Part shown: in pieces, positions 39,653 through 40,954 of the stretch
Layout of the letters: each line of letters opens with the position of its first letter
Position numbering within the stretch: the stretch's first letter is position 1
NCBI GenBank assembly: GCA_964630895.1
Contig: CAZVYE010000006.1
Span: 1 to 45,259, forward strand
DNA: 45,259 nucleotides
Source: an uncultured Gammaproteobacteria bacterium
GTDB taxonomy: Bacteria; Pseudomonadota; Gammaproteobacteria; Xanthomonadales; SZUA-38
Direction: 5' to 3'
The notes under the pieces: model-generated
The model's database searches: none
What the model was told of the DNA's origin: nothing
What the model saw: only the letters and a program-made list of their open reading frames with translations
Position numbers and translations under genes: made by a program

Positions 39653-39684
39653 AGATATTCCTCCATTGAAAATATAATTAATTA

Positions 39685-39830
39685 CCGGCTTCCTGCCGGA
39701 GTGACGAGGTGGCATCCTGCCACCTCCCCACGTTCGCGGACCCCTTGTCCACGTCGCGCTTCCTTGCGCTATTGATCCAAACCGTTCTTCCTTGAACCTG
39801 GCTTGATCCGGCCGCTCATCCTTAAGCGAC
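39685..39830 (-). ncRNA. Putative CsrA/RsmA-sequestering RNA (CsrB/RsmY/RsmZ-like) forming the 5' leader of comEA
   Basis: Minus-strand hairpins GTCGCTT-AAGGAT-GAGCGGC, GTTC-AAGGAA-GAAC, GCGC-AAGGAA-GCGC, GTGGAC-AAGGG-GTCCGC, GAGGTGGC-AGGAT-GCCACCTC and CCGGC-AGGAA-GCCGG, plus unpaired GGA in two linkers. Confidence 0.8.
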
Positions 39831-39904: not shown

Positions 39905-40024
39905 GCTACGTAGGACGTTCAGTTGAACAGTCACGGATTAGCGCTAATGTTCATCCGTCATTTAGGTGCGGCCCGAGAATGTGGGTATAATCGCCGCCCT
40001 TTGAGACCAATAAGAGAAAGTTCG

Positions 40025-40954
40025 GTGGAATTTGAAAACTACAGTAGCTTCTGGAACAAACAAGCTGCGACCGAAGAAGGTGCGTTTGCTGGCGTAGATG
40101 GCAGTGCCAGTGAAGATATTGTGCGGATGACCGGAGAATGGACCGCCAATCAAGTACGTCAGGCGTTGCAGTTGGATGGGAGCCAAAGCGTCGTTGAACT
40201 CGGATGCGGTGTTGGCCGGATTGGTCGCGAGCTCATGCATGATTGCGCCAAATGGACTGGCACTGACATCTCAGGCGCGATGCTCAAGGTTGCCAAGGAG
40301 CGGCTGCAGGACTTCTCTCACACTGAGTTTGTTGAATTAGAGCGCACCAGCCTGGACATGCTGCAAGATGCTTCCCTGGATCGGGCCTACTCGGTGGCCG
40401 TGCTTTGTCATATGGATAAGGAGGATTTGTATCTTTATCTGCAAGAGCTACATCGCATCCTTAAAGATGGCGGCATGGCGTATATCGAAACCTGGAATCT
40501 CTCCCACCCCATGGGTTGGAAGCGCTGGGAATTCGAAGTAGCCAACTGGGCAAGATCGGATCACTCCAAGCGTAAGGACGTAGCCAGAAATCAGTTCTGT
40601 GCGCCGGATGAGCTCAGACTCTACCTCGAACATGCCGGTTTTGACGTTATTTCTTTATATGATGATTCCGCATGGAATCAAGCGACGGTTGCCAAGGGTT
40701 TGTCACCAGAAGAATTGGCATCTCAGCAAGAACGCATGGCCAGGCTTCGTCCAGAGCTTGAGCATTCCCAATTGTGGTCGACGCTCTTTGGCGAACTGCT
40801 GGATGTCATTTATGGCGTGGTTCCTCCGCAAACCATGCTGGAAGCCCTGGAGCAACGTGAGCCGTCCATCGAAGTCGATGTCTATCGCAAATACCTACTA
40901 GCGCTGTGGCGCCAGGGCGAAGCCCACTGGGGCCCGGCTCCGACGAAATCCTAA
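40025..40954 (+). CDS. Class I SAM-dependent methyltransferase
   Basis: VVELGCGVGRIG, GTDIS..ML, D.SLD..YS.AVL.H, E.HRILK.GG; likely GTG start at 40025 with TATAAT at 39986-39991. Confidence 0.88.
   Translation: MEFENYSSFWNKQAATEEGAFAGVDGSASEDIVRMTGEWTANQVRQALQLDGSQSVVELGCGVGRIGRELMHDCAKWTGTDISGAMLKVAKERLQDFSHTEFVELERTSLDMLQDASLDRAYSVAVLCHMDKEDLYLYLQELHRILKDGGMAYIETWNLSHPMGWKRWEFEVANWARSDHSKRKDVARNQFCAPDELRLYLEHAGFDVISLYDDSAWNQATVAKGLSPEELASQQERMARLRPELEHSQLWSTLFGELLDVIYGVVPPQTMLEALEQREPSIEVDVYRKYLLALWRQGEAHWGPAPTKS

Follow-up and report, generated by a model that had tools for sequence, protein, structure and literature searches.

A putative CsrA/RsmA-binding hairpin array in the 5′ untranslated region of comEA in an uncultured gammaproteobacterium of the Xanthomonadales

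To our knowledge, members of the Xanthomonadales possess the regulator RsmA and lack the classical RsmY, RsmZ and CsrB RNAs, with RsmU being the only known antagonist. According to the original report, RsmU (sRX061) of Xanthomonas campestris pv. campestris is an RsmA-binding RNA released by processing of the 3′ untranslated region (UTR) of comEA (XC1332), which begins 25 nt after the stop codon and contains a 40-nt terminator (Tang et al., 2020; PMC7694677). The same report describes it as an RNA of 117 or 77 nt with four or three GGA motifs, one of them in the terminator, which is lost on deletion of the comEA promoter, stabilised by RsmA and active in trans on overexpression, has no match in Rfam and is described from Xanthomonas only, with more than 90% similarity within the genus (PMC7694677). 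GacA and GacS are never mentioned in that paper (PMC7694677), and literature searches revealed, by title or abstract, no published link between GacA and comEA or between GacA and RsmU. Here, a stretch of 45,259 nt (contig CAZVYE010000006.1 of assembly GCA_964630895.1, in the following the window) from an uncultured Gammaproteobacteria bacterium of the lineage SZUA-38, Xanthomonadales, was analysed, in which six consecutive hairpins with A(N)GGA or AAGGG loops precede comEA on the minus strand. Judged from the DNA sequence, we consider it fairly probable that these hairpins are a CsrA/RsmA-binding array in the comEA 5′UTR which titrates CsrA and is driven by a Gac-type system, so that one RNA probably both titrates CsrA and encodes ComEA.

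The array covers approximately 146 nt (39830–39685) and is predicted to lie inside the comEA transcription unit, which reads as follows from upstream to downstream:

39904–39887 (dyad at 39895.5): 18-bp palindrome resembling a GacA/UvrY box, TATAGGATATTTCCTACA, identical to TGTAAG-N6-CTTACA at 9 of 12 specified positions
39843–39838, minus strand: predicted −10 hexamer TATGAT, with constant spacing to the box dyad in 14 of 15 family loci
39830–39811, minus strand: hairpin 1 (H1), 5′-terminal, 8-bp stem, loop (UA)AGGA(UG)
39805–39778, inner stem 39797–39784, minus strand: hairpin 2 (H2), loop AAGGAA
39769–39756, minus strand: hairpin 3 (H3), GCGC stem, loop AAGGAA
39753–39735, minus strand: hairpin 4 (H4), 7-bp stem, loop AAGGG
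39731–39701, inner part 39726–39706, minus strand: hairpin 5 (H5), 8–9-bp stem, loop AGGAU
39699–39685, minus strand: hairpin 6 (H6), loop AGGAA on a CCGGC stem, with no predicted terminator function
39684–39653, minus strand: A/U-rich spacer and Shine–Dalgarno region AAUGGAGGAAU, with GGAGGA at 39664–39659
39652–39353, minus strand: comEA, 99 aa, with signal peptide and helix-hairpin-helix DNA-binding region (TIGR00426, 85.2 bits, cut-off 53.1)
39301–39274, minus strand: comEA terminator, GGCUGCC and GGCAGCC arms around an AUGGAG loop, followed by U8

All six hairpins, five with AGGA and one with AAGGG in the loop as described in the initial annotation of this DNA, are contained in the minimum free energy as well as in the centroid fold of 39830–39630, with a predicted energy of −76.8 kcal/mol (z = −5.95) that was reached by none of 200 shuffled sequences; for the longer stretch 39850–39640, z was −6.6. 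Additional GGA motifs are located in stems of the array region and, as likewise pointed out beforehand, in its linkers and in the Shine–Dalgarno region, which ends 7 nt ahead of the comEA AUG, downstream of the six hairpins, and whose GGAGGA, overlapping the ribosome binding site, is a candidate site for CsrA. On its 3′ side, H6 is followed by TAATTAATTATATTTT, which contains no clean U-tract, and its end is separated by 32 nt from the comEA ATG (39652–39650); the A/U-rich spacer in between is a candidate single-stranded processing site. Two structural options were discarded. In the fold of the longer stretch, UUUCCUCC (39838–39831) pairs with the Shine–Dalgarno sequence, a pairing that was set aside as it involves a stretch which overlaps the −10 hexamer and the inferred start and is probably untranscribed, and a longer ComEA of 120 aa from the in-frame ATG at 39715 was rejected, as this ATG is situated inside H5 and the signal peptide, which in the shorter frame aligns with that of relatives, would be buried.

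The assembly (4.13 Mb in 443 contigs, 95% complete) was scanned on both strands, 8.26 Mb in total, for Watson–Crick stems of at least 4 bp that enclose AGGA in a loop of 4–8 nt, a strict scan that replaced an earlier looser one, which had returned hundreds of clusters and did not discriminate. Among the 729 AGGA-loop hairpins found, at least three lie within 180 nt of each other at one place only, the comEA array, with five; H4 stands outside this count by virtue of its AAGGG loop. The array stretch is present as a single copy in the assembly, and a six-hairpin array of this kind is far beyond chance. The likeness to CsrB, RsmY and RsmZ that had been drawn initially did not extend to the covariance models (RF00018, RF00166, RF00195 and others), as a search with Rfam gave no match for the window at gathering score, while the array region, searched up to E = 10, matched solely PrrB_RsmZ with 12.8 bits (E = 2; gathering score 44). 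No hit above cut-off was obtained with the RsmZ, RsmY and CsrB models over the whole assembly, nor any Rfam match at gathering score on 12 related comEA loci. In a DNA similarity search of 40 other genomes nothing matched the array and the comEA coding part alone was matched in 5 of the 40, and the best match of a metagenome scan with ComEA showed 75% identity over partial length.

Two other GGA-containing places were noticed in the assembly. At G000:C195:6636–6754 (plus strand), both the RsmZ (17.1 bits) and the RsmY (18.8 bits) model match weakly over their full length; to the eye, this place resembles a small, terminator-bearing stretch between genes that contains three GGAs, with no box seen upstream. 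At G000:C32:16050–16320 (plus strand; L211), an intergenic tandem repeat with a 15-nt unit containing AAGGAA is present in at least eight copies, broken by a run of N, which could be another GGA-rich RNA or a plain variable repeat.

As to the extent of the transcript, a terminator scan found zero sites between the array and comEA, and a d'Aubenton-Carafa-type score amounts to −32.9 for H6 versus +43.4 for the comEA terminator. A promoter scan of the spacer between H6 and comEA equally gave no site. Because the predicted promoter is located upstream and neither a terminator nor a spacer promoter is predicted in between, a transcript of approximately 557 nt (about 39830 to 39274) is predicted that combines the array with comEA. 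This agrees with the initial annotation, which had taken the missing U-tract after H6 as a sign that transcription continues into comEA; the contrary arrangement it had envisaged, an RNA ending ahead of comEA together with a separate comEA promoter, is predicted in neither of its parts.

The promoter itself was predicted by comparison of 15 family genomes, that is the window genome and 14 relatives, all of which encode comEA. The UvrY/GacA box has the consensus TGTAAG-N6-CTTACA (PMC3171408), and its right half-site serves as an anchor in 14 of the 15 loci, G012 being without it. In each of the 14 anchored loci, a TAnnnT hexamer occupies +53 to +58 relative to the box dyad, and because of this fixed offset the transcription start is placed near 39830 (±3), at the first base of H1, with the centre of the box approximately 65 nt upstream (about −65). 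From the dyad to the ATG, 245 nt are counted in the window versus 111–120 nt in the 13 relatives with the anchor, from which the array can be understood as an insertion of approximately 130 nt into a short comEA 5′UTR. In a wider set of 81 comEA loci, the pattern GTARG-N6-CYTAC, with at most one mismatch and within 400 nt upstream of comEA, occurred in 22 loci, while 200 composition shuffles averaged 2.74 and never exceeded 9, counts that are not independent among these loci, which are kin; by density, 22 occurrences in 31,141 nt upstream of comEA compare with 4 in 173,520 nt of the rest of the loci. The nearest ComEA loci in named genomes belong to metagenome-assembled genomes (MAGs) labelled Lysobacterales, Wenzhouxiangellaceae, Rhodanobacteraceae and Xanthomonadaceae.

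Several observations concern the box and its surroundings. The 18-bp box forms the centre of a longer palindrome of 42 bp (39916–39875) with the outer arms GTCCTA (39916–39911) and TAGGAC (39880–39875), and the common dyad of the arms at 39895.5 suggests four half-sites. On the other side of the box, a class I S-adenosylmethionine-dependent methyltransferase (39923–40954, plus strand; Methyltransf_11, 65.8 bits) is divergently encoded and has the intergenic region and the box in common with comEA; by eye, a divergent methyltransferase stands beside comEA in 11 of the 14 relatives. Elsewhere in G000, box-like palindromes are found at C59:11732, C108:5307, C54:1490 (and 1327), C48:1381 and C47:1391, with genes behind them for a protein of 587+ aa without Pfam match, a He_PIG immunoglobulin-domain protein, a DUF1232 protein and an extracytoplasmic function sigma factor, a possible small regulon of the same regulator. 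The metagenome contigs L119 (590–700) and L120 contain, downstream of pyrF, a canonical TGTAAG-N6-CTTACA whose centre lies 107 nt ahead of the comEA ATG; behind it come a single hairpin with a GGGAU loop and a Shine–Dalgarno region containing GGA. A Marinobacter sp. MAG (NZ_JAWVYN010000049.1, L070:330–590) carries the GacA-box-like sequence TGTAAGCTTTATCTCACA and, about 70 nt later, an array with approximately 12 GGAs, which has no Rfam match and is located on the same strand, approximately 130 nt upstream of comEA; the link between sponge RNA and comEA may reach beyond the Xanthomonadales.

In the family relatives, GGA hairpins are mostly found at the other end of the comEA transcript. Within 200 nt of 3′UTR, the 15 genomes possess 27 GGA-loop hairpins in sense versus 8 in the antisense control, and within 200 nt of 5′UTR 17, including the five of the window, versus 8. 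The 3′UTR arrays fold as predicted; G008 and G004, with the most similar ComEA (61–67% identity), display four to six GGA hairpins downstream of the stop codon, and G009 a hairpin with a CAAGGAUG loop besides a terminator with an AGGGAA loop. At the 5′ end, relatives also have a terminal hairpin at the position of H1, with a GGA loop in G008, G004, G002 and G003, and enclose the Shine–Dalgarno sequence in a small hairpin with GGA, as L194 and L195 do. By eye, the comEA terminator carries an A-N-G-G-A-N hexaloop in 13 of the 15 family genomes. Alignment of these 13 rows, which leaves out G002 with a terminator loop without GGA and G006 with no clear terminator, showed the 9-bp stem to be 98.1% paired versus 77.5% in shuffles and 35–46% in slid controls, with seven of nine pairs changed on both sides and GGA kept in 13 of 13 rows.

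The genome also encodes the partners that such an RNA would require. CsrA (G000:C344:2239–2397), whose presence had been named as a point to confirm, is recognised with 91.6 bits by PF02599 and with 115.2 bits by NF002469 (cut-off 73). A response regulator of the UvrY/SirA/GacA family, encoded on contig C396, scores 275.9 bits, just below the cut-off of 280 and with the next family at 147, and a GIY-YIG (uvrC-like) open reading frame 3′ of its gene reproduces the classical uvrY–uvrC arrangement. A second, weak CsrA-domain match (28.5 bits, Pfam cut-off 27) in a 101-aa frame at G000:C74:14669–14773 (plus strand; L002) may be a divergent paralogue.

Compared with described systems, the window array is closest to RsmU, with which it shares the order, the host gene comEA, a terminator with GGA and, by genome architecture alone, a predicted dependence on the comEA promoter, the box and the −10 hexamer being located upstream of the array and no terminator being found before comEA. 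Relatives in the family of the window even possess RsmU-like hairpin sets in the 3′UTR (G008, G004, G009 and others). Unlike RsmU, the array of the window resides in the 5′UTR and comprises six canonical hairpins over approximately 146 nt, with only the GGA-loop terminator 3′ of comEA. RsmU, which the initial annotation had named as a possible relative, is according to the original report a real, RsmA-binding RNA tied to comEA, but one that derives from the 3′UTR and not from a 5′ leader (PMC7694677); the window array can be viewed as a positional variant of this arrangement, likened to it by layout only. With RsmX, RsmY and RsmZ as well as CsrB and CsrC (Rfam clan CL00106), the array has in common a series of A(N)GGA loops on hairpins, a palindrome upstream that resembles the GacA/UvrY box and a genome that harbours csrA and a gacA-like gene; it differs from RsmY, RsmZ and CsrB in that its RNA is predicted not to be stand-alone, with an open reading frame behind the array and no separate terminator, and in that its best Rfam score stays below gathering score.

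Messenger RNAs that affect the CsrA pool have precedents. The Salmonella fim leader belongs to an mRNA which both encodes protein and titrates CsrA, and in E. coli the pgaA and glgC leaders contain four to six CsrA sites, mostly weakly structured, that are known for cis-repression and not for titration. The flagellin mRNA flaA of Campylobacter jejuni is reported to be a dual-function RNA that titrates CsrA (PMC4894983). Like flaA and fim, the window RNA is predicted to be a coding RNA with a CsrA-sequestering 5′ region; whereas those leaders have few sites and are not known to be driven by a Gac-type box, the leader described here exhibits the full anatomy of a dedicated sponge. Like the CsrA-repressed pgaA and glgC leaders, it presents several GGA sites including one over the Shine–Dalgarno sequence. 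Concerning comEA and the Gac system themselves, two further reports list a comEA-like mRNA, PP_1813, among the Rsm-bound RNAs of Pseudomonas putida (PMC7937890) and state that, by transposon sequencing in a species of another order, a two-component system homologous to GacS/GacA is needed for competence (PMC7811196).

A mechanism can be proposed on this basis, in which the binding of CsrA and of GacA, the ends and the processing of the transcript, titration and the control of translation are all inferred. A GacA/UvrY-type regulator would bind the palindrome approximately 65 nt upstream of the start and bring about the 557-nt transcript. Each transcript, with six A(N)GGA-type loops of presumed high affinity, the GGA of the Shine–Dalgarno sequence and a GGA-loop terminator, would bind several CsrA dimers and titrate them in the manner of RsmY, RsmZ and CsrB. 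Leader-bound CsrA reaching the Shine–Dalgarno sequence would hold down ComEA translation and thereby tie DNA uptake to Gac/Csr status, and cleavage in the A/U-rich spacer after H6 might free the array as a small RNA of approximately 150 nt. A bolder generalisation, which we put forward tentatively and would expect to fail somewhat sooner than to hold, is that a whole branch of the Xanthomonadales, and not the genus Xanthomonas alone, has in the comEA mRNA its primary Gac-controlled CsrA/RsmA sponge. In such a scenario comEA would be an old direct target of GacA-type regulators in many gammaproteobacteria, box–comEA pairs being found also outside the Xanthomonadales, and GGA modules would be mobile within the transcript; here a six-hairpin array of RsmZ grade would have been rebuilt in the 5′UTR, each sponge molecule being at the same time a CsrA-gated competence mRNA.

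The location of the array, upstream of comEA and co-oriented with it, would equally suit a purely cis-acting CsrA-responsive leader which adjusts ComEA translation or termination within the leader and leaves the free CsrA pool essentially unaffected, and the GGA over the Shine–Dalgarno sequence, the small GGA hairpins around that of L194 and L195 and the precedent of the multi-site pgaA and glgC leaders point in the same direction. We nevertheless regard such a leader as unlikely, since regularly spaced, short and stable hairpins with A(N)GGA loops of 4–6 nt are typical of sponges and not of target leaders. Furthermore, the hairpins of the relatives reside in the 3′UTR, where they are unable to block initiation, no second sponge was found in the assembly and the predicted promoter carries a box of the Gac type; overexpressed RsmU is reported to act in trans (PMC7694677).

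Little credence is also given to a stand-alone Rsm-type small RNA that ends at or after H6 by weak termination, Rho or processing, with comEA served by read-through or by a cryptic promoter in the spacer. The tail after H6 has 10 T in 16 nt, TATATT (39676–39671) could be a −10 element, a GGA-rich stretch upstream of comEA in L014 ends in seven T, and the GGA array of the Marinobacter MAG L070, with its own box, lies approximately 130 nt upstream of comEA; against this, no terminator is predicted between array and comEA, the sole promoter architecture conserved in the family is located upstream of the array, and a start after TATATT, where the promoter scan found no spacer site, would leave almost no leader before the Shine–Dalgarno sequence. 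That the hairpins have no connection with CsrA at all, being a chance GC-rich leader, a repeat, the platform of another protein or part of an extended ComEA frame, appears highly improbable: although the in-frame ATG at 39715 is preceded by GGAGG 7 nt upstream and opens the 120-aa frame, and Rfam yields just the 12.8-bit RsmZ match, the cluster is the only one of its kind in 8.26 Mb and single-copy, all six loops contain GGA or GGG in an A-rich context, and the extended frame would begin within H5 and bury a signal peptide at which the relatives start.

The reading of the array as a Gac-driven CsrA sponge within the comEA mRNA has, on the other hand, a number of points to its disadvantage. Of the 12 positions specified in the canonical GacA box, 3 are different in the palindrome, one base in each half-site and one flanking, and both half-sites are kept in just 7 of the 15 family loci. 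Palindromes similar to GTAGGA-N4-TYCTAC (at most one mismatch) also stand upstream of ordinary protein genes of the same genome, and the identity of the box-binding protein is therefore not certain; the candidate for BarA/GacS is weak (440 versus a cut-off of 890 bits). A close relative of the array is absent from the 40 other genomes, metagenomes and family genomes searched, the rows of the terminator alignment were picked partly by the tested feature, and outside the family, in 80 loci, 3′UTR GGA hairpins were not clearly above the antisense control. The incomplete assembly could hide another sponge RNA, and among the public sequencing runs checked no RNA run contained the window sequence, with one DNA run containing a third of the sampled words. 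For RsmU in X. campestris pv. campestris, the original report states that deletion gave no phenotype and that, with its four GGAs mutated, the RNA was still bound and its overexpression phenotype was unchanged (PMC7694677).

An RsmA sequester embedded in comEA is, as a concept, already published. New, as far as literature searches show, are the 5′UTR site with a canonical six-hairpin array, the finding that a family distant from Xanthomonas has conserved GGA hairpins on its comEA transcripts, and a box of Gac type that keeps a constant spacing to the comEA promoter. Together these suggest a wider system, in which all through a distant family of the order comEA transcripts bear GGA-hairpin modules, with the GacA-type box as the likely input signal. 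They also suggest that GGA modules are mobile within one transcript, either end of the comEA mRNA being able to carry them. If the proposed function holds true, a single transcript would link DNA uptake with both the Csr network and the Gac two-component system, and the 5′ and 3′ arrays on the same gene would provide a natural pair for the effect of sponge-site position on titration and translation.

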